Below, in pieces: positions 3,845-32,724 of a DNA stretch of 36,398 nt (positions within the stretch are counted from its first letter, which is position 1; the number at the start of each line of letters is the position of its first letter). Origin of the DNA: a virus (taxonomy: Duplodnaviria; Heunggongvirae; Uroviricota; Caudoviricetes); the IMG/VR virus record IMGVR_UViG_2869965101_000006; one strand, given 5' to 3'. Under the pieces are notes generated by a model. That model saw nothing but the letters and a program-made list of their open reading frames with translations, ran no database searches and was not told where the DNA came from. The position numbers and the translations under genes were made by a program.

Positions 3845-3916
3845 TGAAGTGGCACACTGAATTTGGCCACCTGAACAGAGGTGATATGCTCACCTCAGAA
3901 CAACACAGGTGCTCCA

Positions 3917-4338
<422 letters not shown>

Positions 4339-4609
4339 TTACGCAGTCAGGTACTTGAGCTACATGGCATCAGCCATGGTTCGGCCGGAGCAAGAAGCAT
4401 CGCCACAATGGCAACCCGGAGAGGCTACCAGATGGGACGCTGGCTTGCTGGCAGGCTCATGAAAGAGCTGGGGCTGGTCAGCTGTCAGCAGCCGACTCAC
4501 CGGTATAAACGTGGTGGTCATGAACATGTTGCTATCCCTAACTACCTTGAAAGGCTGAACCGCCCCGGGAATCCTGGAGACTAAACTCCCTGAGAAAGAG
4601 GTAAACAGG

Positions 4610-4932
4610 ATGACTAAAAATACTCGTTTTTCCCCCGAAGTCCGTCAGAGGGCGATTCGTATGGTTCTGGAAAGTCAGGGCGAATATGACTCACAGTGGG
4701 CGGCAATTTGTTCCATTGCCCCAAAGATTGGCTGTACACCGGAGACTCTGCGTGTCTGGGTACGCCAGCATGAGCGGGATACCGGAGGCGGTGATGGCGG
4801 GCTCACCACCGCTGAACGTCAGCGTCTGAAAGAGCTGGAACGTGAAAATCGTGAACTGCGCCGCAGTAACGATATCCTTCGCCAGGCTTCCGCTTATTTT
4901 GCGAAGGCGGAGTTCGACCGCCTCTGGAAAAA

Positions 4933-4936
<4 letters not shown>
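4610..4936 (+). CDS. IS629 OrfA
   Basis: 108-aa [24 protein letters not shown]..., IS3-family OrfA. Confidence 0.9.
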
Positions 4937-6395
<1,459 letters not shown>

Positions 6396-6406
6396 TGACC
6401 ACTTCA

Positions 6407-8472: not shown

Positions 8473-9525
8473 TCAGGATGTGGGCTGGATGTCTAACAGT
8501 GCGTAAGGGTTAAAGCGGATCACCTCTTCGCCAAGCCAGTCATTGATGTGCTTCATGGCCTCCATGACGGGCATCAGCTCGTTAATTGCGTAAACCCGCG
8601 CGGCCTTCTCCACATCACCAAACGCACTTTTTTCACCCGGCATCGCCCCCATCAGTTGCGGCGGAACGCGGTGCGCAGCCAGCACATCATCACGGGATGC
8701 CGCCTTAACATTCATGAACTCATCCTTTGCGGTGATCTGCTGGAACGGCAAAATTTGCACCCCCTCTTTGCCCCCGTTGGGCGCATGAATGAGCACGTTT
8801 TTAAACGCACCACCACCACGCGCACCCTGTAGCGTTTCTTTCAGGGAGTCCATGCTTTCGCGGTTTACCTGCGCGGCACCGATGTAGATGATGCACCCGG
8901 CGTGGGATCCGTTGTCGTAATACAGTTTTCTGAACATGTCCGCCGAATGAGACAGGCTGGCCGAGAGTAATGCGCCGAGATATTCCGGCATGCCGTAGAT
9001 TTCCTGGTTAATGTCAGGATTCATCAGGTGACACACTTTGCCTGGGCGAAACTGAAACGCATCCTTGCCATCCTGCACATACCACCATGATTCAAGATCG
9101 CTTCCGCGTCGCATGTATTTCGCCAGGGCGTGCCGTAATTTAAGCGGTTCGCCGAGCATATTGCTTCGAAGCTCAAGGAATGCGTTACCGAACACAAACC
9201 AGTCCAGCGCCAGCGCCAGCGCCGAGAAATCCTACCGGGAAAGCAGCGGGTGCGGGATGTAGCAACCGAGCAATACATTGCGCTTAAAGTAAAGCGCAGA
9301 CTGATGCCAAGACGTTTGCCGGGCAGCTCTTGCCAGACCGTACCAGTCCACCGGGGGTTCATACCACCGCCCGTTATCAGCACAGTACATATTGTCCAGC
9401 AGGTCATGCCCGGTCAGGCGATAAGGACCATCAAATGTGAATGCACTGAGCGATGATTCTTTCCTGAGCGCATCAGCGAGATCAATGCGTGAACTCATGC
9501 GCACTTTTTTATTTTTTCTGCTCAT
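8473..9525 (-). pseudogene. portal protein (P2 Q-like) with in-frame TAG
   Basis: Two six-frame ORFs (9232..9525 and 8473..9195) are in the same frame, separated by a TAG at 9232..9234 on the minus strand. Confidence 0.8.
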
Positions 9526-11275: not shown

Positions 11276-11429
11276 TGCTCCCCCTGAGTAATTACAGGAA
11301 GATTACCCGCGCGCGAAACTGTTCTCCTTAACCCTCTGTTCTGGCCGTTTTCTTACAACAAAAGCCCTTTGTATCAGCCTGTTACGCTTTGCCATCATGA
11401 CTGAAGAACCAGTCAGAGGGGCAAAAACT

Positions 11430-11885
11430 ATGGCTAATGAAAAAAAGACATCCCGCAAAAAGTTTCGCGTGGCTGTCTCCGGATCAACTGTTGATGGCCG
11501 TGAAATCAGTCCGGTGCATCTGCGTGAAGCCGCCGAGAACTTCAACCCGGATGTTTACGCTGCCCGCGTGAACGTTGAGCACTATCTCTCGCCATGCCCG
11601 TCAAGCGAATTTTCCGCAATGGGCGATGTCACCGCACTGAGTACGGAAGACATTACGGAAGGTCCGCTGGCCGGACGTACTGCGCTGTATGCAGAAATCG
11701 AACCGACCGAGCGCATGAAGCAGCTTGTTGCGGACGGCAAGAAAATCTATTCCAGTATCGAACTGCACCCGCAGTTCTCCGTTAACGGGCGCGCCTATCT
11801 GGTCGGGCTGGCGATGACCGACACCCCGGCAAGCCTGGGCACTGAGCGCCTGAAATTCACGGCACAGCAACGTCAGGCGGTGATG
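11430..11885 (+). pseudogene. capsid scaffold (P2 O-like) N-terminal fragment
   Basis: KKFRVAVSGSTVDGREISPVHLREAAENFNPDVY… resembles the P2 gpO N-terminus; similarity ends near LGTERLKF and the frame runs on into the endolysin. Confidence 0.7.
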
Positions 11886-11921
11886 ACGTTTAACAGTATC
11901 CAGGGTGAAGGAGAAGGACGA

Positions 11922-12314
11922 ATGAGCAACACATTTAAATTCAGCAGCCGGAGCGAAAAGAATTTGCAGGGTGTAAATCCTGATCTGGTGAAAGTGACCC
12001 GACGGGCACTGGAAATCTCGGAAGTGGATTTTGGTATCACCGAAGGGTTGCGCAGCCGTTACCGCCAGAAGCAACTGGTGGCCACGGGTAAGAGCCAGAC
12101 CATGAACAGCCGCCACCTTACGGGGCATGCCGTGGATGTTGTGGCTTATATCGGCAGCCAGGTGTCATGGGAATGGCCGCTGTACGAAAAAATCGCAGCA
12201 GCATTCAGACAGGCCAGCCGGGAACTGAATATTCCGGTGGAATGGGGCGGCGACTGGAAGACCCTGAAAGACGGACCGCATTTTCAGTTACCACACGGAG
12301 CCTATCCGGCATGA
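11922..12314 (+). CDS. endolysin, peptidase M15-like
   Basis: Internal ATG with AGGAGAAGG RBS; 130-aa product with M15-type motifs (HLTGHAVDV…WGGDW). Confidence 0.65.
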   Translation: MSNTFKFSSRSEKNLQGVNPDLVKVTRRALEISEVDFGITEGLRSRYRQKQLVATGKSQTMNSRHLTGHAVDVVAYIGSQVSWEWPLYEKIAAAFRQASRELNIPVEWGGDWKTLKDGPHFQLPHGAYPA

Positions 12315-16299: not shown

Positions 16300-16832
16300 G
16301 CATGAGTACCACAACACGAAAATTTAAAACCATTATCACCAATACGGGTGCAAAAAAATTAGCTCAGGTAGCCGCGCCAGATGGTAAGCCTGTCCGCCTG
16401 ACTCATATGGCCGTGGGCGACGGTGGCGGCACGTTGCCCACACCAGACAGTAAGCAGACCCGTCTGGTGCATGAGGTGTGGCGACATACTGTTAATCGCG
16501 TCATCCTGGACGCAACACATCAGAACCGCATTATTGCGGAGCTGGTTATTCCTCCTGAAACGGGCGGATTCTGGATCCGGGAAATTGGTGTATTTGATGA
16601 GCACGGCGATTTAATCGCGGTGGGAAATACTGCCGAAAGTTACAAGCCAGCCGTTGCCGAAGGGTCCGGTCGTGCACAAACATTTCGCACCATTCTGACC
16701 GTATCCAGCACTGCCACCGTGGCGCTTACCGTGGACAACACCATGGTGATGGCCACAGTGGATTACGTGGATGACAAACTGAAAGAGCATGAACAGTCAC
16801 GACGTCACCCGGACGCCTCGCTGACCGCAAAA

Positions 16833-17228
16833 GGCTTTGTTCAACTCAGTAGCGCCACTAACAGCGTGTCTGAAACGCAGGCTGCAACGCCGAAAGCAGT
16901 AAAGGCCGCGTATGATCTTGCTAACGGTAAATATACTGCGCAGGATGCCAGCACGACGCGAAAAGGCCTTGTCCAGCTCAGTAGCGCCACCAACAGCACG
17001 TCTGAAACGCAGGCTGCAACGCCGAAAGCAGTAAAGGCCGCGTATGACCTTGCTAACGCAAAATATACCGCTCAGGACGCCACGACGGCACAAAAAGGGA
17101 TAGTCCAGCTCAGTAGTGCCACCAACAGCACGTCTGAAACACTGGCCGCGACATCGAAAGCGGTTAAGGCGGTAATGGATGAAACGAACAAGAAAGCGCC
17201 CTTAAACAGTCCTGCGCTGACCGGAACG
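16833..17228 (+). repeat. about three tandem 132-bp coding repeats in the tail fibre gene
   Basis: Near-identical DNA units starting near 16833, 16965 and 17097, encoding …VQLSSATNS.SET.AATPKAVKAAYDLAN.KYTAQDA…. Confidence 0.8.
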
Positions 17229-17565
17229 CCAACAACGCCAACTGCGCGACAGGGAACGAATAATACCCAAATCGCAAGCACGGCTTTCGTTATGGCTGCG
17301 ATTGCCGCCCTTGTAGATTCGTCACCTGACGCACTGAATACGCTGAACGAGTTAGCGGCGGCGCTGGGAAACGACCCGAATTTTGCGACCACCATGACTA
17401 ACGCGCTTGCGGGTAAGCAACCGAAAGATGCCACCCTGACGGCGCTGGCCGGGCTTGCTACTGCGGCAGACAGGTTTCCGTATTTTACGGGGAATGATGT
17501 CGCCAGCCTGGCAACCCTGACAAAAGTCGGGCGGGATATTCTTGCGAAATCGACCGTTGCTGCCG

Positions 17566-17591
17566 TTATCGAATACCTCGGTTTACGAGAA
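17566..17591. other. gix/hix-type inversion crossover site, left copy inside the fibre gene
   Basis: TTATCGAATACCTCGGTTTACGAGAA matches the reverse complement of 21021..21046 at 21 of 26 positions, with an identical ACCTCGGTTTAC core. Confidence 0.6.
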
Positions 17592-18009
17592 CTCGGCACA
17601 AGCGGGGAGAAAATACCGTTACTCAGTACAGCGAATACCTGGACCAATCGACAAACATTCAGCGGTGGCCTTTCTGGGGAACTGTCCGGCAATGCCGCTA
17701 CTGCAACAAAGCTGAAAACAGCACGAAAAATTGCTGGAGTTGGTTTTGATGGTTCTAGCGATATTTCAATTAGTGCCAAAAATGTCAATGCATTTGCACT
17801 CCGACAAACAGGTAATACTGTTAATGGTGATACATCCATTGGATGGAATTGGGATAGTAGTGCATATAACGCCCTGATTGGTGGTGCATCTGCATTAATT
17901 CTTCACTTTAATATAAATGCTGGTAGCTGTCCTGCCGTACAATTCCGTGTGAATTATAAAAATGGTGGCATTTCCTACAGGTCGGCTCGTGATGGTTATG
18001 GGGTTGAAT

Positions 18010-18777
18010 GGTGATGCTGCCAACTTACTGATTTAGTGTATGATGGTGTTTTTGAGGTGCTCCAGTGGCTTCTGTTTCTATCAGCTGTCCCTCCTGTTCA
18101 GCTACTGACGGGGTGGTGCGTAACGGCAAAAGCACTGCCGGACATCAGCGCTATCTCTGCTCTCACTGCCGTAAAACATGGCAACTGCAGTTCACTTACA
18201 CCGCTTCTCAACCCGGTACGCACCAGAAAATTATTGATATGGCCATGAATGGCGTTGGATGCCGGGCAACTGCACGCATTATGGGCGTTAGCCTCAACAC
18301 GATTTTACGTCACTTAAAAAACTCAGGCCGCAGTCGGTAACCTCGCGCATACAGCCGGGCAGTGACGTCATCGTCTGCGCGGAAATGGACGAACAGTGGG
18401 GATACGTCGGGGCTAAATCGCGCCAGCGCTGGCTGTTTTACGCGTATGACAGGCTCCGGAAGACGGTTGTTGCGCACGTATTCGGTGAACGCACTATGGC
18501 GACGCTGGGGCGTCTTATGAGCTTGCTGTCACCCTTTGACGTGGTGATATGGATGACGGATGGCTGGCCACTGTATGAATCCCGCCTGAAGGGAAAGCTG
18601 CACGTAATCAGCAAGCGATATACGCAGCGAATTGAGCGGCATAACCTGAATCTGAGGCAGCACCTGGCACGGCTGGGACGGAAGTCGCTGTCGTTCTCAA
18701 AATCGGTGGAGCTGCATGACAAAGTCATCGGGCATTATCTGAACATAAAACACTATCAATAAGTTGGAGTCATTACC
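18010..18777 (+). mobile_element. IS1, 768 bp, with 9-bp target duplication GGGTTGAAT
   Basis: Ends GGTGATGCTGCCAACTTACTGAT… and …ATCAATAAGTTGGAGTCATTACC; insA 18065..18340 and insB frame 18385..18762; duplication at 18001..18009 and 18778..18786. Confidence 0.9.
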
Positions 18778-19066
18778 GGGTTGAATTAGGTTGGTCAGAT
18801 TTCTATACCACGACACGAAAACCTTCAGCGGGAGATGTTGGTGCATATACGCGGGCAGAATGTAACTCAAGGTTTATTACAGGTATTCGCCTTGGCGGTC
18901 TGTCATCTGTTCAGACATGGAATGGTCCCGGCTGGTCTGACAGGTCAGGTTATGTCGTTACGGGTTCAGTTAACGGAAACCGTGATGAATTAATTGATAC
19001 AACACAGGCAAGGCCAATTCAGTATTGCATTAATGGGACGTGGTATAACGCGGGGAGTATTTAACG

Positions 19067-19600
19067 ATGATGCACTTAAAAAACATTACTGCTGGCAACC
19101 CTAAAACAAAAGAGCAATACCAGCTAACAAAGCAATTTAACATCAAATGGCTTTATTCAGATGATGGAAAAAACTGGTATGAGGAGCAAAAGAATTTCCA
19201 GCCAGACACTTTGAAAATGGTCTATGACCATAACGGCGTTATTATTTGTATTGAAAAGGATGTTTCAGCAATTAATCCGGAAGGCGCAAGCGTCGTTGAA
19301 TTACCTGATATTACAGCAAATCGCCGGGCTGATATTTCGGGGAAATGGTTGTTCAAAGATGGCGTAGTGATAAAGCGAACTTATACCGAGGAAGAGCAGA
19401 GGCAACAAGCGGAAAATGAAAAGCAAAGCCTGTTGCAACTTGTCAGGGATAAAACCCAGCTATGGGACTCACAGCTACGGCTGGGCATCATTTCCGACGA
19501 GAATAAACAAAAATTAACCGAGTGGATGCTCTATGCGCAGAAAGTCGAATCTACAGACACCTCCAGCCTGCCAGTAACGTTTCCCGAACAACCAGAATGA
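19067..19600 (+). CDS. tail fibre assembly protein (P2 G-like)
   Basis: 177-aa ORF directly after the fibre gene; paralogue of the inverted copy at 19629..20156. Confidence 0.75.
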   Translation: MMHLKNITAGNPKTKEQYQLTKQFNIKWLYSDDGKNWYEEQKNFQPDTLKMVYDHNGVIICIEKDVSAINPEGASVVELPDITANRRADISGKWLFKDGVVIKRTYTEEEQRQQAENEKQSLLQLVRDKTQLWDSQLRLGIISDENKQKLTEWMLYAQKVESTDTSSLPVTFPEQPE

Positions 19601-19628
19601 GAGAAGGCCCGATATTGGGCCTTAATTT

Positions 19629-20156
19629 TTACTCAGGCTTTTGTGGCCATTCGGGATTTGCTGTATCCACACGGCTGACCAGAACGCTGTAGCGTTCCCA
19701 TGACTCCAGTCGTGTGCGTTCCTCATCCATCGCCATATTCAGCCTGACAGCGCGTTCCAGTGGCTGAATAACGCTTTCAGCTTCAGAAAGCAACGCGACC
19801 TTTTGTGATTCGGCCTGTTGTTGCTGTTCGTCTGCTGTATAAATCCGCTTAACCACAGTTCCGTCCTTAAACATCCACTTCCCTGAATCATCGGCGCGAC
19901 GATTGGCTGTTATATCTGGAATCTCAACGACACTAAAGCCTTCGGGATTAAGCGTTGAGGCATCTTTGGTTATGGCAACAATAATATTATTTTCGTCGTA
20001 TACAATCTTTATGGTGTCGTCCTGAAAGTTATTTACTTCCTCATACCAGTTTTTACCGTCTTCGGACCATAACCAGATAACATCAAAATTCTTTGTTAGC
20101 TGATATTGTTCTTTTGTTTTTGGATTTCCGGACTTAATATTTTTTAAATGCTGCAT
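19629..20156 (-). CDS. alternative tail fibre assembly protein of the invertible segment
   Basis: 175-aa ORF; N-terminal ~45 residues nearly identical to the 19067..19600 product, then divergent. Confidence 0.75.
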
Positions 20157-20159
20157 AAT

Positions 20160-21020
20160 TTACACCTGTGCGACGTTATACCATGTGCCATTGATGTATT
20201 TTTGTATTGGTCTGAAGATGGCTTCATCATCGCCATCTACTTCACCAATGATTCTTAATCCGGTAATTGCGTGTCCGGCTTTTTCATAACGACCACCACG
20301 CGCCATCAATTGAACAACACGCGTACCCAGGCGAACATCTTTTACATAGCGTGAATCAAAATTCCCCCAGTTGCTGGGCTGTATCTGACCGTTAACAGAA
20401 AATATTACCGAGTTATCTGTATTTCGCTGGCTATAGAAATGCCATCCTGCCTCATCGCCTAACTCTGCAACTACTGGACGGGTTGAAGCACCCCATAAAT
20501 TAAACGTTGCATTCTTTGTGAAGTTGTTGGAGCTGGATAGCGTGAATTTTTTACCATCCCCGGCCTGAATATTTTTAAAAGCAATAGCCACTCCATTCTG
20601 AAAGCGGAATACACGCTGACTATTAGCATAAACATCCAGAATACCGTCTCCATTCTGTTTAAATCCGGTGTCATTATCACCAAGAACAATAGAGCTACCA
20701 CCTAACGCATTCGTCGAACCAACTCCAAGACTGCCATTAATGACAGCATTAACAAGAATATTTAGTGCATCCCATTTCAGCGTCATCAGGTCTTTTGTTG
20801 TGGTGCTCTGGCGGCTTCTCCATTTGAAATATTCATTGCCGTTGTCGCCTGTTTCAAACCACATGTATGAATCAGTGTCACCATCGGCATCATTTTTAAA
20901 TCCAATCTTCGCCCAGTCAGTATTTCGAATCCAGGCAAGGATTGAGTCATTTTCAAAAGTAAGCCCACCGGACAAGGTATCGCCATTTTTTTGCACGGCG
21001 TTACCAGCCCTGTTTACCGT
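20160..21020 (-). CDS. alternative tail fibre C-terminal segment, promoterless and start-less; expressed only after inversion
   Basis: Frame stays open on the minus strand from 20160 up to the gix site at 21021..21046; no ATG of its own. Confidence 0.65.
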   Translation of the reverse strand, partial: TVNRAGNAVQKNGDTLSGGLTFENDSILAWIRNTDWAKIGFKNDADGDTDSYMWFETGDNGNEYFKWRSRQSTTTKDLMTLKWDALNILVNAVINGSLGVGSTNALGGSSIVLGDNDTGFKQNGDGILDVYANSQRVFRFQNGVAIAFKNIQAGDGKKFTLSSSNNFTKNATFNLWGASTRPVVAELGDEAGWHFYSQRNTDNSVIFSVNGQIQPSNWGNFDSRYVKDVRLGTRVVQLMARGGRYEKAGHAITGLRIIGEVDGDDEAIFRPIQKYINGTWYNVAQV

Positions 21021-21046
21021 TTCCTGTAAACCGAGGTTTTAAATAA
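21021..21046. other. gix/hix-type inversion crossover site, right copy
   Basis: TTCCTGTAAACCGAGGTTTTAAATAA, closely resembling the Mu gix sequence as recalled; inverted partner at 17566..17591. Confidence 0.6.
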
Positions 21047-21100
21047 TGGCCGTTTCTGGCCTGCATGGCATGATTTGCGCTTTTGGACGGGAGATTCAGT

Positions 21101-21700
21101 GTGCTGATTGGCTATGTAAGGGTATCAACAAATGACCAGAATACAGACCTGCAACGAAACGCTCTTGTTTGTGCAGGATGTGAACAAATATTTGAAGATA
21201 AATTAAGCGGGACAAAGACAGACCGACCGGGATTAAAACGCGCTTTAAAGCGCCTTCAAAAAGGTGACACGCTGGTTGTCTGGAAACTGGATCGCCTCGG
21301 GCGAAGCATGAAACATCTGATTTCTCTCGTCGGGGAACTACGGGAGCGAGGGATTAATTTTCGCAGTCTGACCGACAGCATAGACACATCTTCTCCAATG
21401 GGGCGTTTTTTCTTCCACGTGATGGGTGCCCTGGCTGAAATGGAACGTGAATTAATTGTTGAACGTACACTGGCCGGGCTGGCGGCAGCGCGCGCAAGGG
21501 GGCGCACAGGCGGACGTCGACCGAAGCTGACAAAAGAACAGCATGAGCAAATAGCAAGGCTAATCAAAAACGGGCACGACAGAAAACAACTGGCAATAAT
21601 TTACGGCATTGGCACATCGACGATTTATCGTTATCACCCTGTAGGCGATATACAGACTGAAGAAACAACCGGGCAGACTCAGGAAAATGAAAACCGCTAA
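21101..21700 (+). CDS. Gin/Pin/Cin/Hin-family serine DNA invertase
   Basis: GTG start giving MLIGYVRVSTNDQ… with catalytic-serine motif and C-terminal HTH; near-identical to Mu Gin as recalled. Confidence 0.85.
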   Translation: MLIGYVRVSTNDQNTDLQRNALVCAGCEQIFEDKLSGTKTDRPGLKRALKRLQKGDTLVVWKLDRLGRSMKHLISLVGELRERGINFRSLTDSIDTSSPMGRFFFHVMGALAEMERELIVERTLAGLAAARARGRTGGRRPKLTKEQHEQIARLIKNGHDRKQLAIIYGIGTSTIYRYHPVGDIQTEETTGQTQENENR

Positions 21701-21728: not shown

Positions 21729-22223
21729 TCAGAACAGCCCTTTAACTGAACTGGCCGCGCTGTTAAGAGATGATGTCACCTTATCTTTGAAGCCGGACAG
21801 CATATCACTGAACGATGAGGATTGCAGGCGCTCCCGCAAATCCTCATCACAGCGTTCAAGAGTCAGTGAAAATTCTATCTTTTTCGCCTTACCGTAGCGA
21901 TCAAACTCGGAGCGGGTCGTATTCGTTTCAGTCAGGACATACATGCCGTAAATCTGCCCGACGCCATCAATCAAAGGCCAGGGTCGTCCTGTATACGCCT
22001 GCGTGGTCAGCAGCGACAGCGACACTTCGCCACCTGTAATTTCAGGATAAAGCACACCAGAAAGAACGATGCGATCATCACCTGCACCGATATACTGCCA
22101 GCTTGCTGAACGGTTAACGCGTTCATTTTTCACATGCCGCCAGCTTTTGTTTTGCTGTAACTGCTGATGCGGCAGCGTGCGCAGCTCAAAAACAAACATG
22201 CCGTAGATCATCATCATGGCCAT
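21729..22223 (-). CDS. tail protein (P2 U-like)
   Basis: 164-aa ORF with recalled similarity to P2 gpU (…GMFVFELRTLPHQ…). Confidence 0.75.
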   Translation of the reverse strand: MAMMMIYGMFVFELRTLPHQQLQQNKSWRHVKNERVNRSASWQYIGAGDDRIVLSGVLYPEITGGEVSLSLLTTQAYTGRPWPLIDGVGQIYGMYVLTETNTTRSEFDRYGKAKKIEFSLTLERCDEDLRERLQSSSFSDMLSGFKDKVTSSLNSAASSVKGLF

Positions 22224-22229
22224 GACTCC

Positions 22230-25046
22230 TCAATCTTTATCGTAAAAACAGCCACGCCCGGCACGGGCGCGCCGTTCCATTTCTGCCCTGACCATTTCAC
22301 CGACCAGTTTCGCCAGTTCGCGGGGATTCTGCGTAACAACGTTATGCAGATGAACATGAATTTCACCACCAAATCCGGAGGCAACAGGCTCCCGGTTACG
22401 GGAAGTTACAGGAACTGATGCCACTGGAGATCGTATAGCCTCCGCCACCGGGCGGGAGCTGGCCGCAACAACAGGGACCAGCGCCGGAGGCAGCGGAGCC
22501 GGAACCACGGGTGTGATATTAATTGCGGGGGCAGGCTTACTGACCTGCGCAATCTTCCGCTCCTGCCACTCCCCACGAACAGCAAGTGCTCGGGGCAGGT
22601 TTTTAAAGACAATATCGCCGGGGCCAATGCGTTTTTTCGTCTCCTCAACCAGCTTACCTGTGTTATCAGCAATTTTGCTGAGTCTGCGCAGCGTACCGGT
22701 ATTGCTGTCTGTGAGCGGTTTATTGTCTTTGGGGTTATCACCTCCGGTGCCATTGCCATTTTCCACAGGCTTCGGCGGATTGATTTTCGCCAGGTCCCCC
22801 TGAAGCAAGGCAACCTTGTCCTGAAGAATGGCCGCACGCTGTGCGTCTTCGATTTTCTTGCGCGCCCTTTCCGCTTCATCCGGAAGCACACCAAGCTTTT
22901 CAAGTATCCACGCCAGCGTATCCAGCAACATTTTTGCAGGTGTCAGAACAAGTTGTAACGCACCGCCAAGAACGTTACCGAATATCTCGCCAGCACTGGT
23001 ACATTTATCCAGAGTTTCCTTGCTGGACTCCATCGGTGACAGCAGCGATTTAAACCAGTTAAACACCTGGCTGATCCCACTCCCGATTGCGTCAAAAACA
23101 GGACCAAACCGTTCAAATGTTTCGCGCAACGGGGTCAGCCTTTCCATAATCCCGCTGAACACCCCGGCAAAAAATGCCCTGATGGGATCCCAGTATTTCC
23201 AGATAAGAACGGCAGCTCCGGCAAGCGCAGCCACGATAAGACCAACCGGACTGAACAACGCCCCGATAGCGCCTCCCAGTAAAGAAACGGAACCCGTCAC
23301 CATTCCCCATAGTGCTGGCAGAACCCTGACAGCATTCATTGATCCGGTCAGGAGGGAAAAACCAAGACGCAGTTTTGCCAGCGGGCCAGCAAGCACACCA
23401 ATAGCCAGCGACAACGAGCCAACCGTTGCAGTCATTGCCAGCAATGCACCGCCTGCAATCAGTAGCTGGCGCGTCAGTGCGGGATGGGCCTGCGCCAGCG
23501 CCGTCACCTTTGATACCACACGCGTGAGCCACTGCGTGACAGAACGCAGCGGACCGTCAATCAGATCTGCAATGCGGATGCGCAACCCTTCCCATGCACT
23601 GCTGAGTGATTTCAGATCGCCGTCAAGGTTGTTGGCCATAACCTTTGCCGTGCGTTCAGCCTCACCGCGCGCGCCTTCAAGTTCTTTTCTCAGTTTGGGT
23701 AAGGAGCCGTCACCTGCCGCATCAACGAGGGCCATAAATGATGTGAAAGCCTCTTCTCCGGCAATGTCCTTAAAGAACGATACCCGGTCAACTTCCCCGT
23801 ATTTGCGGGTAGCTTTATAAAGGTCAGCCAGCACATCCTCCATCGGGCGCATTTTGCCCCCGGCATCCGAGACAGACACGCCAAGCTCTTTCAGCGCCTC
23901 TGCTGCCGCCTTTGGCGGTGATGCCAGACGAGCCAGGCTGGCACGCATTGCCGTACCAGCATCACTCCCCCTGATACCCATATTCGCCAGCACGCCCGCC
24001 ATCGCTGCGGCCTGCTCCAGAGATATTCCCAGCTTACCCGCCACCGGACCTGCATATTTCATGGTTTCACCCAGTGCGCGAAGGTCAGTGTTGGTACGGG
24101 TAAACGCTGCGGTGAGTGTGTCGCCGACCCGGTCCATCTGGTCAGCAGAAAGACCGAACTGCGTCAGAATATTTGAGCCAATATCCGCCGTCTCACCGAG
24201 GTCCATACCGCCAGCCGTTGCCATGCTCAGTACGCCAGGGAGCGCAGCCTGAATGGCCTGTGGTGTAAAGCCAGCCATTGCAAGAAATGCCTGTCCACTG
24301 GCGGCATCGCCTGCGGTGAACTGCGTTTCAGAGCAAAGTTTTAACGCCTGCTCACGCAGCGCCTTAAACTGCGGGCTGTTCTGGTCGATTCGCGTCAGTG
24401 CCTGAACGCGGAACATCTCTTTGCCGAACCCGATCGCAGGCTGCAAAAAACGCCCGGCAGCATAGCCGCCCGCCGCTGCCGCACCAATTGCCAGCGCACC
24501 ACCTGTTTTCAGTTTTCCCGCTGTTTCCTGCGCGCGCGAATACCGCTCACGCGCCCGTGTTACACGCGCAAGCGCCTGCCGTTCGCGTTCAAGCTGGTTG
24601 TTGTACTGTTCGGTGCGTCTGATGGCCTGCTGGATGGTGTTATCGCTGCCTGTCAGGGAAATGCCGTGGCGTTTCAGCTCTCCGCCAAGCTCCCGCATTT
24701 TCTGAATTTCCCGTGTGCGCGATTCATTCAGGCGTTCAAGCCGGGTGCTTAACTGCTGCATCAGCTTTTGTTGTTTTTCGCTGAGCACTGTACCCGTGCG
24801 TTGTAACTGATTAAGGGCGTTAAGCTGGCGTCGTGCTTTCACGATGCCCGCATCCGCTTTACTGACAGCGTCACGGGCGCGCTCAAATGATCGCGCCTGA
24901 CGCTCGAGATTTTTGATCGCCCCCTGCGTTCGCTGGATGGAGTCACCAAACTGCCCCATCAGGCGGCGGGCGTTTTCGGCAGGCCGGGTCAGCCTGTCAA
25001 CGGCGCTGAAAGCGACCCGGATATCAAGAGTCTTCATTGTCTGCAT
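22230..25046 (-). CDS. tail tape measure protein (P2 T-like)
   Basis: About 940 aa, Ala/Gly-rich with coiled-coil and hydrophobic stretches; intact ORF; start approximate. Confidence 0.85.
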   Translation of the reverse strand: MQTMKTLDIRVAFSAVDRLTRPAENARRLMGQFGDSIQRTQGAIKNLERQARSFERARDAVSKADAGIVKARRQLNALNQLQRTGTVLSEKQQKLMQQLSTRLERLNESRTREIQKMRELGGELKRHGISLTGSDNTIQQAIRRTEQYNNQLERERQALARVTRARERYSRAQETAGKLKTGGALAIGAAAAGGYAAGRFLQPAIGFGKEMFRVQALTRIDQNSPQFKALREQALKLCSETQFTAGDAASGQAFLAMAGFTPQAIQAALPGVLSMATAGGMDLGETADIGSNILTQFGLSADQMDRVGDTLTAAFTRTNTDLRALGETMKYAGPVAGKLGISLEQAAAMAGVLANMGIRGSDAGTAMRASLARLASPPKAAAEALKELGVSVSDAGGKMRPMEDVLADLYKATRKYGEVDRVSFFKDIAGEEAFTSFMALVDAAGDGSLPKLRKELEGARGEAERTAKVMANNLDGDLKSLSSAWEGLRIRIADLIDGPLRSVTQWLTRVVSKVTALAQAHPALTRQLLIAGGALLAMTATVGSLSLAIGVLAGPLAKLRLGFSLLTGSMNAVRVLPALWGMVTGSVSLLGGAIGALFSPVGLIVAALAGAAVLIWKYWDPIRAFFAGVFSGIMERLTPLRETFERFGPVFDAIGSGISQVFNWFKSLLSPMESSKETLDKCTSAGEIFGNVLGGALQLVLTPAKMLLDTLAWILEKLGVLPDEAERARKKIEDAQRAAILQDKVALLQGDLAKINPPKPVENGNGTGGDNPKDNKPLTDSNTGTLRRLSKIADNTGKLVEETKKRIGPGDIVFKNLPRALAVRGEWQERKIAQVSKPAPAINITPVVPAPLPPALVPVVAASSRPVAEAIRSPVASVPVTSRNREPVASGFGGEIHVHLHNVVTQNPRELAKLVGEMVRAEMERRARAGRGCFYDKD

Positions 25047-25187
25047 TCCCGCTACGAAGTGCCGCTCGCTCACGCCAGCTAACCACTTCGCAGGGCGTCA
25101 TCATGAAGATTTCGGCGGGCGACCAGTTAAAAATGGCGGCAATATCCGCCACCAGATCTTCGATGTGCTCAAAGCACACCAGGGTGA

Positions 25188-25562
25188 TTACGCTGCCGTC
25201 TCCTGCACGCTCTTCGCGCCAGAGTCTGGCTCGCTCATAAAATTTACAGCCACAGCGCACAACTGAATAAAATCGCGTGACGACATTTTTTTAATCATCA
25301 CTTCATCCAGTCGTGGCGAGGTCACGCGAGGCAACAGCGTGAACATGGTATCCGCTTTCAGATTCAGCACATCAGACAGCGACAGACCACGCAGGGATCC
25401 AGCCTGCTCAATAGCCCCGGTGATCTCCACATACGTGATTTTTTCGCCACCACGCTCAATTGGTCGGGTCAGTTTTACGCCACGTTCGACAGCCATATCC
25501 TCAACTGCCGTCACATTATCCGCCACGGTGTTATTCCGGGTTTCAGTATCGATGTCTTTCAT
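25188..25562 (-). CDS. tail assembly chaperone E, with a -1 frame extension (E') to 25024
   Basis: Overlapping ORFs 25188..25562 and 25024..25260 in 0 and -1 frames directly upstream of T; slippery candidates at 25239..25245 and 25286..25292. Confidence 0.65.
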   Translation of the reverse strand: MKDIDTETRNNTVADNVTAVEDMAVERGVKLTRPIERGGEKITYVEITGAIEQAGSLRGLSLSDVLNLKADTMFTLLPRVTSPRLDEVMIKKMSSRDFIQLCAVAVNFMSEPDSGAKSVQETAA

Positions 25563-25620
25563 CTGTTGTCTCCTTTTCAGTCAGAGGCGACGCACTGCGC
25601 CGCCAGCATATTACTTATCA

Positions 25621-26905
25621 GCCAAGCCCAAGCGCGGAACGGATGCGATCGGGCACAATGTCCTTGCCGTCCTTCGGTGATGCTGCCAACTTACTGATTT
25701 AGTGTATGATGGTGTTTTTGAGGTGCTCCAGTGGCTTCTGTTTCTATCAGCTGTCCCTCCTGTTCAGCTACTGACGGGGTGGTGCGTAACGGCAAAAGCA
25801 CTGCCGGACATCAGCGCTATCTCTGCTCTCACTGCCGTAAAACATGGCAACTGCAGTTCACTTACACCGCTTCTCAACCCGGTACGCACCAGAAAATTAT
25901 TGATATGGCCATGAATGGCGTTGGATGCCGGGCAACTGCACGCATTATGGGCGTTAGCCTCAACACGATTTTACGTCACTTAAAAAACTCAGGCCGCAGT
26001 CGGTAACCTCGCGCATACAGCCGGGCAGTGACGTCATCGTCTGCGCGGAAATGGACGAACAGTGGGGATACGTCGGGGCTAAATCGCGCCAGCGCTGGCT
26101 GTTTTACGCGTATGACAGGCTCCGGAAGACGGTTGTTGCGCACGTATTCGGTGAACGCACTATGGCGACGCTGGGGCGTCTTATGAGCTTGCTGTCACCC
26201 TTTGACGTGGTGATATGGATGACGGATGGCTGGCCACTGTATGAATCCCGCCTGAAGGGAAAGCTGCACGTAATCAGCAAGCGATATACGCAGCGAATTG
26301 AGCGGCATAACCTGAATCTGAGGCAGCACCTGGCACGGCTGGGACGGAAGTCGCTGTCGTTCTCAAAATCGGTGGAGCTGCATGACAAAGTCATCGGGCA
26401 TTATCTGAACATAAAACACTATCAATAAGTTGGAGTCATTACCCCGTCCTTCCGGTAAATGAAGTTCAGCAGGTCAATCTCCCACAACGGGCGATCGTTA
26501 ACACTCAGCTTGTAGTAGGTGTTTTAATGGCGTAAGTGTGTGATGTGGCTTCGCCCTGTTTGGCTTCCCCCATATCAATTTCCGTCACACGTCCGCGCAT
26601 TTCGACTTCATACAGGTCGCTTTCTGCATCGGTGTAGTATTCACCCGCAAAACGCAGCAGCGTGCCGTCAATCGTGCCGCCATACTTAAGGAACAGCTCA
26701 CGAACTGCGCCCCCATGACAAAGCTCGCATCAAGCGCGGAGTCGTCCAGACCGAGATCAATACTTACCGCACCCATCATGCCACCACCCCGGTAGCTGTC
26801 GGTTTTGCGCGTCAGCTTAGGCAGAGTGACGGACGTCACATTACCCACTTCGTTTTCACCATCCACAAACAGCGTAAAAAAGCGAAGATGTTTTGGCACA
26901 GCCAT
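25621..26905 (-). pseudogene. tail tube (P2 FII-like) destroyed by IS1 and frameshifts
   Basis: N-terminus (…SVTLPKLTRK…DLGLDD…) matches FII; homology then changes frame at least twice (around 26500 and 26700) and is split by IS1. Confidence 0.75.
25676..26443 (+). mobile_element. IS1, second copy, 768 bp, with 9-bp target duplication CCGTCCTTC
   Basis: Identical to the copy at 18010..18777, same orientation; duplication at 25667..25675 and 26444..26452. Confidence 0.9.
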
Positions 26906-28089
26906 CAGGCACCTCCCAGCACCGCAAATGCGGGTTCAAAGTATTCATCAGTAAACGTCTGGTAAAGCTCCATGTCTTCCAGTGGCGGAACGGGCGTATA
27001 TTTGTAGCGAATACGCACACGTCCCTGACGTAAATCCGTGGTGCTGTTATCCACCACGTCATACCAGCACTCCGCGCCAATCAGTTTCCCGGCAGTCACC
27101 AGTGAATCCAGTTTTGCCCTGATGGCACTGATAACATCCTTCACATTCGCAGGCGTCAGTGGACTGTCGATGGTTTCAAACTGCGCTTCCGCAATTGAAT
27201 CAGCCAGCACCTGTGCGGTTCGGGTATACACCTCAAAGATGTAGGCGTTCGTTTCCGGTGTGCGGTTACCCCAGAAGCGGACCCCGTTGCGACGAATAAT
27301 GGTCGTGATTTCTTTGTTGTTGAGGCTGTTGGCATCGCTGTCTTCGGCCTGCAACGACCAGAACACATGCCTCGACATCCCCAGCACATTTTTAACCGGA
27401 ACGTTGGACAGCGATTTGTGCCATCCCTGTTCATGGTCAATGTACGCACGAAGGCCGCACGCATAGGCAGGCGCGGGGAACGTTTCGTTTTTGCCATTTT
27501 TCGGGTTGTAGGCGATGAAGTCCGGCCATAAGAGCATCACCTCACGTTCGTTGAATTTCTGGCGGTAGGTAATTGCCTCGGCCATCGTGTTACAGCCATG
27601 ACATGAGGCATACACAAACGCGCGCAGTTTATCTGCAATCACGCACAGGGATTTTGTTACCGCCTCCGTGTCCAGCTCCGGCGCGGCCAGAATACGCGGA
27701 CGGTATCCGATGCTTTCATCCTGCTCTGCAACAAGCAGCGCATACATCCCCGTATAGCTGCCGTCATCCTCAGAACCACCGATAACCAGTTGATCCTGCG
27801 TCTTTCCGTCTTCTTCTTTGTGTTCAGCCACGCGAACGACGATCACCTTTGTGCTCACCTGGTCTGCGATGGCCTTAAGCGCACGATAAAGCGTCCCCGT
27901 TGTCCCGCATTTTCCCAGCACGTCATTGACGCGGGTCAGCAGTGTGGGCTTGTTCAGCGGGAACAGCTTCGCGTCCGCATCATCCGCCGTTGCCACGATA
28001 CCGATAACGCTGGAATCAACATCGTTAATCGCTGTTACCAGGTCGGTATTCTCCGTAACACGGGCACCATGAAAACGAGTTTCACTCAT
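26905..28089 (-). CDS. tail sheath protein (P2 FI-like)
   Basis: 394-aa intact ORF with sheath-like sequence. Confidence 0.85.
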   Translation of the reverse strand: MSETRFHGARVTENTDLVTAINDVDSSVIGIVATADDADAKLFPLNKPTLLTRVNDVLGKCGTTGTLYRALKAIADQVSTKVIVVRVAEHKEEDGKTQDQLVIGGSEDDGSYTGMYALLVAEQDESIGYRPRILAAPELDTEAVTKSLCVIADKLRAFVYASCHGCNTMAEAITYRQKFNEREVMLLWPDFIAYNPKNGKNETFPAPAYACGLRAYIDHEQGWHKSLSNVPVKNVLGMSRHVFWSLQAEDSDANSLNNKEITTIIRRNGVRFWGNRTPETNAYIFEVYTRTAQVLADSIAEAQFETIDSPLTPANVKDVISAIRAKLDSLVTAGKLIGAECWYDVVDNSTTDLRQGRVRIRYKYTPVPPLEDMELYQTFTDEYFEPAFAVLGGA

Positions 28090-28246: not shown

Positions 28247-29356
28247 ATGACCGACACCACCATGCAATTGCTCAGTCAGGGCACGGCCCCCGTGAAAATG
28301 CCGGATTTTGATATTCTCTCGGAGGGTAAAACGCTGTCAGGCGTGGCGGAGCGCCTGATGAGCCTGTAACTGACCGACAACCGGGGATTTGAGGCGGACC
28401 AGCTCACCATCACGCTGGATGATGCGGATGGTCAGTTGCAGCTACCGCCACGGGGCGCGCGTCTGACGGTTCTCATTGGCTGGAAAGGGGAACCGCTGAC
28501 AGAAAAAGGCACTTACATTGTTGATGAAATCGCTCACGAAGGACCGCCGGACAGGCTGACTGTTTCAGCCAGAAGCGCAGATTTTCGGGATGAATTTAAC
28601 GTTAAACGTGAGGTGTCCTGGCATGATGTGACCGTTGAGCGTGTGGTATCCGCCATCGCTCATCGATACGGTCTGAAACCGCAAATCAGCGAAATGCTGA
28701 TGGATATCGAAATCGACCACGCCGACCAGACCGAAGAAAGCGACATGTCCTTTCTTACGCGCATGGCGGAAATGCTGGGAGCAATCGCCACGGTAAAAAG
28801 CGGCAATCTGTTATTCATCATGCCAGGTGGTGGCGTGAACGCACAGGGGCAGCCGTTGCCCTCGTTCGCCATTACACGCAGCAGCGGCGATCGCCATCAG
28901 TTCCGCATTGCTGACCGCGAGGCGTATACGGGGGTACGCGCCTACTGGCTTGATCTTAATTACGGGAAAAAGAAAAAAGTCAGCGTGAAACGCCGCAAAC
29001 CGCCAAAACCCAAAAAGGAGAAAAGCAGCAGTCGGGAAGGCGACTATATGGAAGGTGCGGAAGGCAACGTGTTTGTGTTACGCAAGACTTATCAGAACGA
29101 GCAGGCAGCAAGACGCGCAGCGGCGGCAAAGTGGCAGCAGCTACAACGCGGAGCCGCATCATTCTCCATCACGCTGGCGCGTGGTCGTGCAGAACTCTAT
29201 CCCGAAATGCATGGCACAGTGACAGGCTTTAAAAGCGAGATTGATTATCAGGACTGGATTATTGCAAAAGCCGAGCACACCATTGATAACAGCGGCTTTA
29301 CCACGCAGCTTGAACTTGAAGCAAAAATCCCGGAATGGATAGCAGAAACAGAATAA
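28247..29356 (+). pseudogene. tail protein D (P2 D-like) with in-frame TAA
   Basis: ATG at 28247 after a GGGAGGGAG RBS; in-frame TAA at 28367..28369 inside the conserved …LTDNRGFEADQL… motif; the rest (28436..29356) is open. Confidence 0.75.
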
Positions 29357-29604: not shown

Positions 29605-32600
29605 ATGATTGGACAATTTTTAAGTGCAACAGAGATTTTAGCAAAGAACTATGTTCGTAATAAAATGGTTAAAAATCCATTTTATTCGAATTTAAAATGG
29701 AATTTTATTGAAAAAAACATCATAAGATTAACATCCTCACCGGTTAAATCAGTACTTTGCATATCAGCTTTTTCATTTGTACTACTTTATGTTGGATATT
29801 TAAACGAATTATTTATAAAAAATAATCTTTTACATTATTTCCCGTTTAGGCATTCATTAACCGAATGGCAAACAACCATTTTAAGTGGCCAATTGACAAT
29901 TATTGGTATTGTATACCCCCTTGTTATAGGTTTAGTAAGTATCTTATTCCAAAAAAAGGCAGATAGAAAAATAGCCCAAACTGCTTATCAGCGTTACTCA
30001 GGATTCATGCTTGCTGGACTCAGCGGGCTTTTCTTATCAGGATTTATACTTCTCAGTGTACTAATTAAAACTGTCTTTGGAAGTTATCTTTATGGTATAG
30101 CTTGTCTAATCAGCATATTATGGCTTTTGATAAACATAGTTCTTTCTATTTGGTTCTTTATCGTGAGTCTTGAAATTCTTGATGATGTAAAACGGCAAAT
30201 AATTATAAAGCGATACATTGCCTTCGAAATAGTAATGCCCCATATTTGTAACAAAATCTCAGCCAAGCTTAGGTTATACCCTATCTATCAAAAACATAAC
30301 TATTCAAATTTAGAAATCAAGCAAGCCGATTACAAAGGAGAATACATATCTGTGGCTAGCAGTTATTCTAAGGAAGATGAGTTAAGTTTATATCACCGTC
30401 CTTTTCAACTTACTCTTAATCTTATTAATTACCAACTAAAAAAGAAGAATCATTTTGCGTCATTTGTCATTGGTGATAATCGTACAAAAGAAACAGAATC
30501 CACGGGTAAGATACTTTTTAGCGTTAAAAATATCAAACCAGACAGCTTATTAATAAAAATACTTAAGCAATGTTTTTATAGGGCTCCGATTAAAGGAGGA
30601 GATTTTTCCGTAAGTCTTACAATGCAGGCTATAACAGCAGATACGTATATGTATCTGCGGGATTCTGATCTCATTAGTTTTGACAATGCTATCTCTGCAT
30701 TAATTAATAACTTTAATAATCTCTGCGATTTGTATTTTTTTCAAGATGATAATACCAACAATAACTTCTTACTGATCACTACAGAATTATTTGAACGGAG
30801 TTTTCAATATGAGTTTTCAGATGAAGTTTATAAAATATCAAATAATTCCATGGATAAAATTAATCTTTCTGAAAGATTTTTTGAATTATGTCTTTGGAGC
30901 GGAGTGCGTATTATCAATAATAGAAAACATCTTATCAGCAATGAACTTTGTATCTATATGGGAATTACTCGTTCACAATGGTCAATATTAACAGAATGGT
31001 TCCGAAACAACCAATCACTCTTAAATGCCTCGCTTCGTTCACGTTATAATCGTATATTAAGAACCTATACCACTGTTTGGGAGCAATATCAAGAAAGCAT
31101 AAACTTTCGTTTCTGCAATACAGAGAATTCAGATTTATTTGAATTATTTTGCAAAACGCAACTACAAGAACTTCCATCGATGATTATTGATGCAACACAG
31201 ACTCGCGATCCTTCTACTATTGATACAGCCGTCGATCTTATTAACCGATGGCAGCACTCAATGAATATTGACAGCCATTCGGTAGAAAAATACAGTTACA
31301 AAGGCCAGCTTTTTAACCCGGGTTTTTTCATATCCAAAAAACTAAACTTCAATTCAGACAGAGAGTGGTTCAATATTGCCATCATAAATGCGTTGACTGA
31401 CATGCGTATATGCACATGTCTTTATCTGACATCAAGAATCAATACTTCTGACAAACTAATGACACATTACATTAAACTTATTTTAGAGGGTAAACTTATT
31501 GACCAAACCGGTGGATATGAAACTCCCACTGAAGAAATTGATAATGCAAGCCAACTAATCAAGATATTAATTAGAATCTGCCTGTGGACATGGTCTGAAA
31601 ATATGGAACACAATGGGTGGATGAATAGTTTAGCAAGGCGTTTACGTGACTATGATAAAACAGACATGGTGATGGGCAGAGTTTACAGTAATGTTTTTGA
31701 CTGTGGATTTATTGATATGGAACAATCATGGGTTCAGCTATTATTAATTTTTTCTAACAAGAACGATAGCGTATCAAAAGAAATAAAAGAAGCAATAGAA
31801 AACAACTATATAACATATCGTGAGAAGCAACGACTCATTGGAGTATTATCAAAAATTTGTAACTCCATCGAATACACTAAAATCAAGCTGACTTTAACAT
31901 TGGACGATCTCCAAACAAAAAAAGAAAACTTAAGAAAGTTGCTTCAAGAGCATATTAACATGCTAAAGAAAGATCTTGATATGAGACTTCAGGATGCTGC
32001 CATAGATGTACATCGACTAGATAGCACTGCACGTAAAACATCAGAACATCTTCGTAAACGCATCAAGAAAACGCTCCCTCTTTCACTTTTTAAATCTATT
32101 GATTTTAAGCAGGCTAGCGATTGTTTCACAAAACATAAGATATCTATTAAGATAGATAAAGAACCGTATGCCGAAGGAATAGAATCCATCCCTTATATCA
32201 ATGAAGGTGATATTCAAGCAGACTTAATTCTCAAGGACATCCAGAGAATAATACTTTCAAATTTATTTAGCACTGGCTGTTCGCAACATACCGTAATAGA
32301 AGATTTCAATATGTTGATTGATCACATAAAATCATCTGCTGACTTGGCTGGCAAACTGGTTCTTGTGATGAGTAAAGAGATCTTTCAGCAATATAATCGT
32401 ATGCTTTTCGATAATCCCAACCTCAGAGAACTAATGAGAAAAAATGATGATGGCTCTATGAACATAACTACTGAATCCGGTACCCGTAAGGTTTACTTCT
32501 TACCATTTGTTAATCAACCATTTTCTCTTGTGGTAAAGGATAACTACTTCACTAAATTAATTATTAGAGAATATGATAATAATAAGTTAGTAAATGTCAC

Positions 32601-32724
32601 TTCAGAGAATATCAAAAGTGACTCAGATAAATTCAAGCTAACTCTTAACTATGAGTTGAATGTAGTATTTGAAGGAAACGCTGATTTAAAAATAGCTCAC
32701 TCGCAAAGAGTGACATCAGAATAA
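29605..32724 (+). CDS. large hypothetical membrane-anchored protein (1039 aa), AT-rich cargo gene
   Basis: Uninterrupted ORF; four hydrophobic helices in the first ~190 aa then ~850 aa of Asn/Lys/Ile-rich soluble sequence; no Walker A, HxH or other obvious catalytic motif by eye. Confidence 0.75.
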   Translation: MIGQFLSATEILAKNYVRNKMVKNPFYSNLKWNFIEKNIIRLTSSPVKSVLCISAFSFVLLYVGYLNELFIKNNLLHYFPFRHSLTEWQTTILSGQLTIIGIVYPLVIGLVSILFQKKADRKIAQTAYQRYSGFMLAGLSGLFLSGFILLSVLIKTVFGSYLYGIACLISILWLLINIVLSIWFFIVSLEILDDVKRQIIIKRYIAFEIVMPHICNKISAKLRLYPIYQKHNYSNLEIKQADYKGEYISVASSYSKEDELSLYHRPFQLTLNLINYQLKKKNHFASFVIGDNRTKETESTGKILFSVKNIKPDSLLIKILKQCFYRAPIKGGDFSVSLTMQAITADTYMYLRDSDLISFDNAISALINNFNNLCDLYFFQDDNTNNNFLLITTELFERSFQYEFSDEVYKISNNSMDKINLSERFFELCLWSGVRIINNRKHLISNELCIYMGITRSQWSILTEWFRNNQSLLNASLRSRYNRILRTYTTVWEQYQESINFRFCNTENSDLFELFCKTQLQELPSMIIDATQTRDPSTIDTAVDLINRWQHSMNIDSHSVEKYSYKGQLFNPGFFISKKLNFNSDREWFNIAIINALTDMRICTCLYLTSRINTSDKLMTHYIKLILEGKLIDQTGGYETPTEEIDNASQLIKILIRICLWTWSENMEHNGWMNSLARRLRDYDKTDMVMGRVYSNVFDCGFIDMEQSWVQLLLIFSNKNDSVSKEIKEAIENNYITYREKQRLIGVLSKICNSIEYTKIKLTLTLDDLQTKKENLRKLLQEHINMLKKDLDMRLQDAAIDVHRLDSTARKTSEHLRKRIKKTLPLSLFKSIDFKQASDCFTKHKISIKIDKEPYAEGIESIPYINEGDIQADLILKDIQRIILSNLFSTGCSQHTVIEDFNMLIDHIKSSADLAGKLVLVMSKEIFQQYNRMLFDNPNLRELMRKNDDGSMNITTESGTRKVYFLPFVNQPFSLVVKDNYFTKLIIREYDNNKLVNVTSENIKSDSDKFKLTLNYELNVVFEGNADLKIAHSQRVTSE

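Follow-up and report, generated by a model that had tools for sequence, protein, structure and literature searches.

Insertion of IS1 into a P2 gpH-like tail-fibre gene within a putative Gin-type invertible segment of a prophage remnant

In the G/Gin system of Mu, the C-cin system of P1 and the P-pin system of e14, a serine invertase gene lies beside a segment that is bounded by inverted 26-bp sites and carries two opposed sets of fibre-tip and assembly genes. The insertion sequence IS1, in turn, is defined by a length of 768 bp, the insA and insB' frames, an A6C motif, whose role in the element has been described, a 232-aa transposase and a target duplication of 8-9 bp (PMC12428005). In Shigella and enteroinvasive E. 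coli, the expansion of resident IS1 copies, together with the interruption of genes by insertion sequences, constitutes the main route of gene loss (PMC7373316). Here, we examined an IS1 copy within a 36,398-nucleotide stretch of DNA from an IMG/VR virus record (IMGVR_UViG_2869965101_000006; hereafter, the window). Our analyses make it very probable that this copy arose by an ordinary IS1 transposition, which truncated one of two switchable fibre tips in a P2-family prophage that is defunct on account of many other lesions, and none of the evidence contradicts the transposition event itself. The host chromosome is that of an IS-rich E. coli or Shigella, and the source (GCA_002949175.1 / CP026762.1) is presumably Shigella, judging from its IS load.

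The element occupies positions 18010..18777 on the plus strand, is 768 bp long and is intact, as established from its terminal repeats, Pfam domains and comparison with the IS1A element of E. coli K-12. The imperfect terminal inverted repeats, located at 18010..18032 (IRL, GGTGATGCTGCCAACTTACTGAT) and 18755..18777 (IRR, GGTAATGACTCCAACTTATTGAT), match at 18 of 23 positions. The insA gene (18065..18340, plus strand) encodes a 91-aa product with zinc-ribbon and HTH domains (Pfam PF03811, E = 3e-21, and PF12759, E = 1e-29), and the A6C programmed -1 frameshift motif (AAAAAAC) is found at 18316..18322 on the same strand. A -1 shift at this motif is predicted to generate the InsAB' transposase of 232 aa (18065..18762); the insB' frame, the ATG-bounded part of which (18385..18762, plus strand) contains the DDE_Tnp_IS1 domain (PF03400, E = 3e-74), would be entered from upstream via frameshifting. 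Compared with IS1A of E. coli K-12 MG1655, 758 of 768 nucleotides are identical (98.7%, 10 mismatches), and InsAB' differs by two amino acids, G76S, which is the sole difference within InsA, and S129R. Judged from these features, the element looks autonomous and undamaged.

IS1 is flanked by a 9-bp target-site duplication, GGGTTGAAT, the left copy of which lies at 18001..18009 and the right copy at 18778..18786. The two copies agree perfectly (9/9), and an earlier reading of the sequence only, which had described a 768-bp IS1 flanked by a 9-bp duplication at 18001-18786, located them exactly to the base. The 9-mer occurs just these two times in the 36.4-kb window when both strands are searched, and a chance match of nine nucleotides at one fixed pair of positions has a probability of ~4^-9 = 4e-6. 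The target corresponds to codons 567-570 of the tail-fibre gene and lies in an AT-richer region, with a GC content of 0.40-0.44 at 17700..18000 compared with 0.53-0.57 for the gene's constant part; AT-rich targets are favoured by IS1.

The duplication also records the allele into which the element transposed. One of the substitutions that distinguish the fibre gene of this lineage, F568V (T>G), sits within the 9-bp duplication and is found in both copies, while all five aligned intact homologs have T at this position and all 283 empty sites detected in E. coli deviate by at least one base from the 80-nt probe. Being present in both repeat copies and missing from the E. coli empty sites, F568V must therefore be older than the insertion, and its occurrence in both copies indicates that the target duplicated by IS1 was the lineage's own allele. 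The G-allele version of the empty site (GATGGTTATGGGGTTGAATTAGG) had no match in the GTDB species representatives.

The interrupted gene is, on the basis of its tested domains and its position, a P2 gpH-type tail-fibre gene. Its 5' part (16302..18009, plus strand; assigned from Pfam and gene order) runs from codon 1 through codon 569 and includes one further base, the first of codon 570, and the N-terminal part of its product contains a Phage_tail_fib domain (PF12571) followed by three Phage_fiber_2 repeats (PF03406) according to Pfam. It stands after the baseplate genes V-W-J-I and before an assembly-protein gene, in the order V-W-J-I-H-G. The reading frame as found (16302..18014) encodes 570 aa ending in ...GYGVEW*, with a TGA five bases into IS1, so that the truncated fibre consists of 569 residues of its own plus one IS-encoded Trp. 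The severed distal tip, that is, the last 92 codons and the TAA stop codon, remains on the other side of the element (18787..19064, plus strand). When 16302..18009 is joined to 18787..19064, a frame of 1986 nt emerges, comprising 661 codons and TAA at 19062..19064, without an internal stop. This bears out the earlier proposal that excision of IS1 and one copy of the duplication reopens the fibre frame through to that TAA. Comparison with the closest intact gene (NZ_CP136025.1, 'tail fiber protein', also 1986 nt) revealed seven mismatches and no gaps, and the additional frameshifts that would have spoken against the proposal are thus absent from the restored frame.

Over its final 165 residues, the restored fibre is 86-87% identical to S' of Mu (G-), S' of D108, Sv' of P1 and Sv of P7. 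The cognate assembly protein of the interrupted tip, of the gpG / Mu U' type, is encoded immediately downstream (19067..19600, plus strand; Caudo_TAP in Pfam), and its gene is now located downstream of IS1. In the mechanism that we propose, IS1 would have transposed into the P2 gpH homolog, duplicated the 9-bp target and removed the distal 92 residues of the Mu-S'/P1-Sv'-type tip; through polarity, the assembly-protein gene may at the same time have been cut off from upstream transcription.

The same reading had called IS1 the only lesion in this gene. This holds insofar as no other frame-disrupting lesion is present, but not with regard to substitutions, since the gene carries seven that are specific to the lineage, six of them nonsynonymous. 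The six (V11I, D14N, A23V, V513I, G520S and F568V), along with the synonymous seventh, are all absent from the five intact homologs. Six of the seven, covered by three probes of 80-100 nt, found no perfect match in the complete E. coli genomes (the best matches had 1-2 mismatches), the substitutions being 'private' with respect to the complete E. coli genomes only. The ratio of six nonsynonymous to one synonymous change in the window lineage differs from the 12:40 found when the five intact homologs are compared with one another (Fisher p = 0.002) and is compatible with the neutral expectation, given 75% nonsynonymous sites. In pattern, the lineage-specific changes therefore look neutral and suggest relaxed selection. 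The gene would have drifted neutrally both before and after the arrival of IS1, probably since the prophage was already defective. Moreover, the fibre may have been impaired by these six missense changes before IS1 arrived, and the insertion may then not have been the inactivating event.

Uninterrupted versions of the site, with a single copy of the 9-mer, were recovered with the 80-nt probe from 283 of 5426 complete E. coli genomes, the closest of these strains being GDSC2BY4G; none of the 5426 contains this IS1 insertion. The junction between IS1 and the fibre gene likewise had no match in the GTDB species representatives or the JGI metagenomes. By exact look-up in a collection of 15 billion proteins, the truncated 570-aa product is a singleton, because the copies of its relatives differ and the look-up demands an exact sequence. 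The restored 661-aa protein is absent from the same collection, also by exact look-up, so that the lineage's allele was not encountered in uninterrupted form.

IS1 lies inside a switch of the Gin/Cin/Pin/Hin type (Din) that is, by its anatomy, structurally complete. A 30-nt inverted repeat occurs at 17562..17591 and 21021..21050, and the putative crossover sites, each of 26 bp, are TTATCGAATACCTCGGTTTACGAGAA on the left (17566..17591; central TC) and TTCCTGTAAACCGAGGTTTTAAATAA on the right (21021..21046; central GA); of their 26 bases, the left site shares 22 and the right site 24 with the boundary sequence of the Mu G segment. The two sites are in inverted orientation and share the same central dinucleotide (TC/GA), and the left one falls within the fibre gene at the boundary of its constant and variable parts. 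The segment measures 3,455 bp (2,678 bp before IS1); its plus strand carries the interrupted variable part and the assembly gene belonging to it, its minus strand a second assembly gene and another variable part. The latter two are a 175-aa Caudo_TAP protein gene (19629..20156), which would serve the flipped orientation, and an alternative variable fibre part (Sv', P2-H type) at 20160..21033, recognized through Pfam and in-silico inversion.

Next to the right site, a Gin-type serine DNA invertase of 199 aa is encoded on the plus strand (21101..21700; Resolvase and HTH_7 domains in Pfam). It is intact and, apart from one residue, identical to its counterpart in an undamaged E. coli prophage; it matches the Mu Gin structures 3UJ3 and 4M6F with E = 1e-99 to 3e-100 and is identical to Mu Gin at 154 of 183 amino acids. 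The first 180 nt of its gene are identical to those of Mu gin at 177 positions; the Fis-dependent recombinational enhancer of gin is situated in the 5' part of the gene. When the segment was inverted in silico, the second variable part came to continue the reading frame of the constant part, which resulted in an open 716-aa fibre frame followed by the 175-aa assembly protein, with IS1 downstream of both genes. Because IS1 is inside the invertible segment, only one of the two alternative tips, the Mu-S'-like one, is affected. If the segment is able to invert, as its anatomy suggests, the flipped orientation would bypass the lesion and encode an intact P2-H-type fibre. This context of the insertion was not part of the sequence-only reading.

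The prophage itself, situated at the btuC-ihfA locus, is assigned by its sequence to the P88/Xuanwuvirus-like members of the P2 family. Its lesions were scored against the intact prophage lying between btuC and ihfA in GDSC2BY4G, with which the retained blocks are collinear and 96.7-99.7% identical. The region of the replication endonuclease is lost, with IS911-like and other IS3-family sequences in its place, and a second deleted block extends from the C-terminal half of the scaffold gpO through the capsid, small terminase, head completion, X and holin genes; this capsid-block deletion left behind a gpO-endolysin fusion ORF. A 1-nt deletion has shifted the frame of the large terminase gene, a stop codon lies within the portal gene, and gpD is broken off by a nonsense codon at position 41. 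A second IS1, 100% identical to the first and in the same orientation, resides at 25676..26443 in the tail tube gene FII, which is encoded on the minus strand, and is flanked by a duplication of its own, CCGTCCTTC (25667..25675 and 26444..26452). Since FII also suffered two 1-nt deletions, it is not restored by excision of this second IS1. Together with an IS3-family element (33056..34382) and an ISEc20-like element of the IS110 family at the right end, the window accommodates at least five IS copies in 36 kb, and the fibre gene ranks among the better preserved genes of the remnant. The heavy decay of the rest of the prophage had not been remarked upon in the first description of the insertion. 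As the prophage cannot make particles, having lost its capsid and replication genes and bearing the other lesions, the hit in the fibre gene has no plausible consequence for phage production, and its effect is probably nil.

The insertion is shared by other assemblies. Its exact left junction is present in two IMG/VR proviral contigs, L013 (IMG genome 2751185958) and L014 (IMG genome 2630968712), and a further contig of the latter genome, L015, contains the right junction along with the left junction of the second IS1. The fibre genes of both genomes lack D14N and carry T378I and R563H, for which the window retains the E. coli state, and in L013 one 132-nt repeat unit is missing. With three nonsynonymous differences between the carriers (D14N on one side, T378I and R563H on the other), the insertion must be inherited and not unique to one strain. 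A comparison of ~22 kb of the window with genome 2630968712 revealed seven differing sites. At the rates of 6-9e-7 per site per year reported for Shigella (PMC7373316), and presuming that the source evolves in a Shigella-like manner, this would translate, as a very rough estimate, into a divergence of a few centuries. In L014 there is one IS1, bordered on the left by the fibre sequence and on the right by the right flank of the second IS1, as a 7.67-kb deletion between the two IS1 copies would produce. We rejected such a deletion: L015, from the same genome, is exactly the 'missing' segment and reaches 30 and 26 bp into the IS1 ends, which makes an assembly collapse the most likely origin of the join in L014.

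These data bear on how the insertion arose and how old it is. The earlier reading considered it recent, and a more pointed version of this view would hold that a very recent, strain-specific insertion is the sole lesion inactivating an otherwise functional prophage fibre. The perfect duplication does fit with recency, as do the complete identity of the two IS1 copies in the window, the restoration of the frame without any indel, the exact look-ups, in which the truncated product stood alone and the restored protein was missing, and the lack of the insertion in the complete E. coli genomes. However, both junctions occur in two further assemblies that have since acquired SNPs, three of them nonsynonymous and within the fibre gene itself, while the singleton status is accounted for by sequence differences under an exact look-up. 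Furthermore, the substitutions of the lineage are neutral in pattern and at least one of them was in place before IS1 arrived, and the prophage is disabled by numerous further lesions. We thus regard a strain-specific, solely inactivating event as improbable; of the recency claim, the perfect duplication stands, and the sharing of both junctions with two other assemblies, followed by three later nonsynonymous changes, speaks against the rest. The two identical, equally oriented IS1 copies 6.9 kb apart would also be expected if 18010..18777 and 25676..26443 were the arms of a composite transposon that brought in the intervening 6.9 kb (the fibre 3' end, the assembly genes, the invertase, and U, T and E). 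Such a transposon should have a single duplication at its outer ends, but here each IS1 has its own (GGGTTGAAT/GGGTTGAAT and CCGTCCTTC/CCGTCCTTC), and the DNA in between is collinear with, and 99.7% identical to, an intact prophage free of IS1. The duplication pattern and the collinearity refute the composite structure, to which we assign virtually no probability.

We give equally little credence to the view that the position of IS1 is an assembly artefact caused by a misplaced repeat. IS1 is a high-copy repeat, and the draft assembly L014 does collapse two copies into one; nevertheless, the source record is a single 4.58-Mb contig, both junctions with their matching duplications were recovered independently in other assemblies, and a misplaced repeat does not make a precise 9-bp target duplication. 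Ordinary transposition may still be combined with a different fate of the gene. On the one hand, the excess of nonsynonymous changes in the truncated fibre might reflect selection on the shortened protein rather than drift: eight of the nine lineage-specific fibre changes are nonsynonymous, and the 1.7 kb of this gene contain three of the seven differences between two close assemblies. On the other hand, the lesion might be phase-dependent, IS1 having turned a two-way host-range switch into an on/off one or having been tolerated through bypass by inversion. All three assemblies with the insertion have the segment in one and the same orientation, an observation that speaks neither for nor against bypass by flipping. 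Even taken together, these two proposals strike us as very improbable, and ordinary IS1 transposition into the fibre gene of a prophage that was probably already defective is the reading that we retain.

The insertion is real and represents routine prophage decay of a kind that is already known. A parallel case is provided by a related prophage of E. coli Ec-U4, where an independent insertion of a different IS1 isoform (92.8% identical, with the duplication GAAGGGCAC) disrupts the alternative, P2-H-type tip and where excision of IS1 likewise restores the frame of the fibre gene. Beyond the annotation of the locus as part of a P2-family prophage remnant, the case is of little importance; the fibre gene should be annotated as an IS1-disrupted pseudogene (16302..18009 joined to 18787..19064) within a Gin-type invertible segment. 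As the event is clean and datable, with a perfect duplication, an allele-specific target and a presence in at least three assemblies, it might serve as a lineage marker. It also calls for caution, in that an intact duplication and a restorable frame alone prove neither that an insertion is recent nor that selection was acting on the gene at the time of the hit.

In comparison with known systems, the element resembles IS1A in its 768-bp length, imperfect 23-bp inverted repeats, insA/insB' organization, A6C motif, 232-aa InsAB' and 9-bp target duplication, and deviates from it by ten nucleotide differences and by G76S and S129R in InsAB'. The IS-rich window is reminiscent of Shigella and enteroinvasive E. 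coli, in which insertion sequences drive the formation of pseudogenes; the source is presumably a Shigella. The prophage is similar to the Xuanwuvirus (P88-like) prophages, the nearest named phages as far as the fibre tip is concerned, such as Escherichia phages 503458, 520873 and P884B11, the fibres of which are 98-99% identical to the interrupted tip at the protein level, and the btuC-ihfA prophages of UTI89, EC958 and GDSC2BY4G are further examples of the Xuanwuvirus type, with GDSC2BY4G having the gene order and integration site of the window. Unlike intact Xuanwuvirus prophages, however, the copy in the window contains two IS1 elements and other insertion sequences, has lost two large blocks and bears several mutations of the frameshift or nonsense type. 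The switch shares with those of Mu, P1 and e14 the serine invertase beside a segment with inverted 26-bp sites and two opposed tip and assembly sets, and, in view of a note in the P1 record, it is presumably also related to the B-pinB segment of Shigella boydii, the subject of Tominaga et al. 1991. It differs from the switches of Mu and P1 in that the constant part of its fibre and the rest of the prophage belong to the P2 family, its alternative tip is of the P2-H type, and the segment has been lengthened by IS1.

The window carries a second IS1, which together with its duplications occupies 25667..26452 and interrupts the minus-strand tail tube gene FII (about 25617..26905). This copy is 100% identical to the first, fibre-borne IS1 and has the same orientation, and it is flanked by a 9-bp duplication of its own, CCGTCCTTC. 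Two 1-nt deletions, near 26522 and near 26710, also lie in FII, so that removal of the second IS1 does not restore the reading frame.

In L014, a contig of IMG genome 2630968712, a single IS1 (locus 5314..6081) joins the fibre flank directly to the FII flank, a junction that mimics a 7.67-kb deletion. A real deletion was considered and rejected, because the seemingly lost segment is present in the same IMG genome as a separate contig, L015, which ends inside the IS1 ends. The join seen in this public proviral contig is thus most probably a product of collapsed assembly.

Among related prophages, an independent IS1 was identified in E. coli Ec-U4 (NZ_CM192147.1; 5959..6726 of the extracted locus), where a different isoform, 92.8% identical and flanked by the 9-bp duplication GAAGGGCAC, interrupts a P2-H-type fibre tip; a frame of 740 aa reopens once the element is excised. 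For two further E. coli genomes, the features listed at the matched site or close to it include IS5- and IS3-family transposases.

The prophage bears numerous further lesions. Relative to the intact btuC-ihfA prophage of E. coli GDSC2BY4G (NZ_CP136025.1), two large deletions are evident, one of which has produced a scaffold/endolysin fusion at 11397..12314, where the N-terminal half of gpO is joined to an M15 endolysin and the capsid, small terminase, head completion, X and holin genes are lost. The other affects the replication region (3580..6406), where the replication endonuclease gene and a portion of parM have given way to IS911-like and other IS3-family sequences; a 265-bp fragment at 3580..3844 has exactly the sequence with which the IS at 33056 begins. 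In addition, the portal gene is interrupted by a stop at about 9200 and, compared with the reference, contains an insertion of 6 nt (9204..9209), a 1-nt deletion near 10665 splits the large terminase gene into 211- and 374-aa ORFs, and gpD has a nonsense codon at codon position 41 (28367..28369).

Within the fibre gene, three tandem 132-nt repeat units (16829..17224; Pfam Phage_fiber_2) were found; identity to the first unit is 87% for the second and 61% for the third. The fibre gene of L013, the proviral contig of IMG genome 2751185958, has one unit fewer, which reflects either real repeat contraction or assembly collapse. Over about 22 kb, the window and IMG genome 2630968712 differ at seven positions, three of which, all nonsynonymous, fall inside the 1.7-kb truncated fibre gene (16302..18009) against about 0.5 expected by length, although these are small numbers.

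The Gin-type invertible tail-fibre switch (17566..21046 and 21101..21700) is complete, comprising two gix-like sites, two opposed sets of tip plus assembly protein and an intact invertase, the first 180 nt of whose gene match Mu gin at 177 positions. The segment has the same orientation in all three assemblies bearing the fibre IS1.

Between gpD and ogr lies a 1039-aa ORF (29605..32724), which is possibly a cargo (moron) gene of the prophage. In the E. coli reference, the annotation of the near-identical gene reads 'MFS transporter', a label that looks doubtful given that a Pfam search of the 1039-aa product returned no match.

The FI-FII-E-T-U tail operon (21729..28089) lies on the strand opposite to the baseplate/fibre genes and to gpD (28247..29356). 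Because intact E. coli prophages also have this opposite-strand operon, it represents a lineage feature rather than a rearrangement in this genome. The arrangement is unlike that of phage P2.
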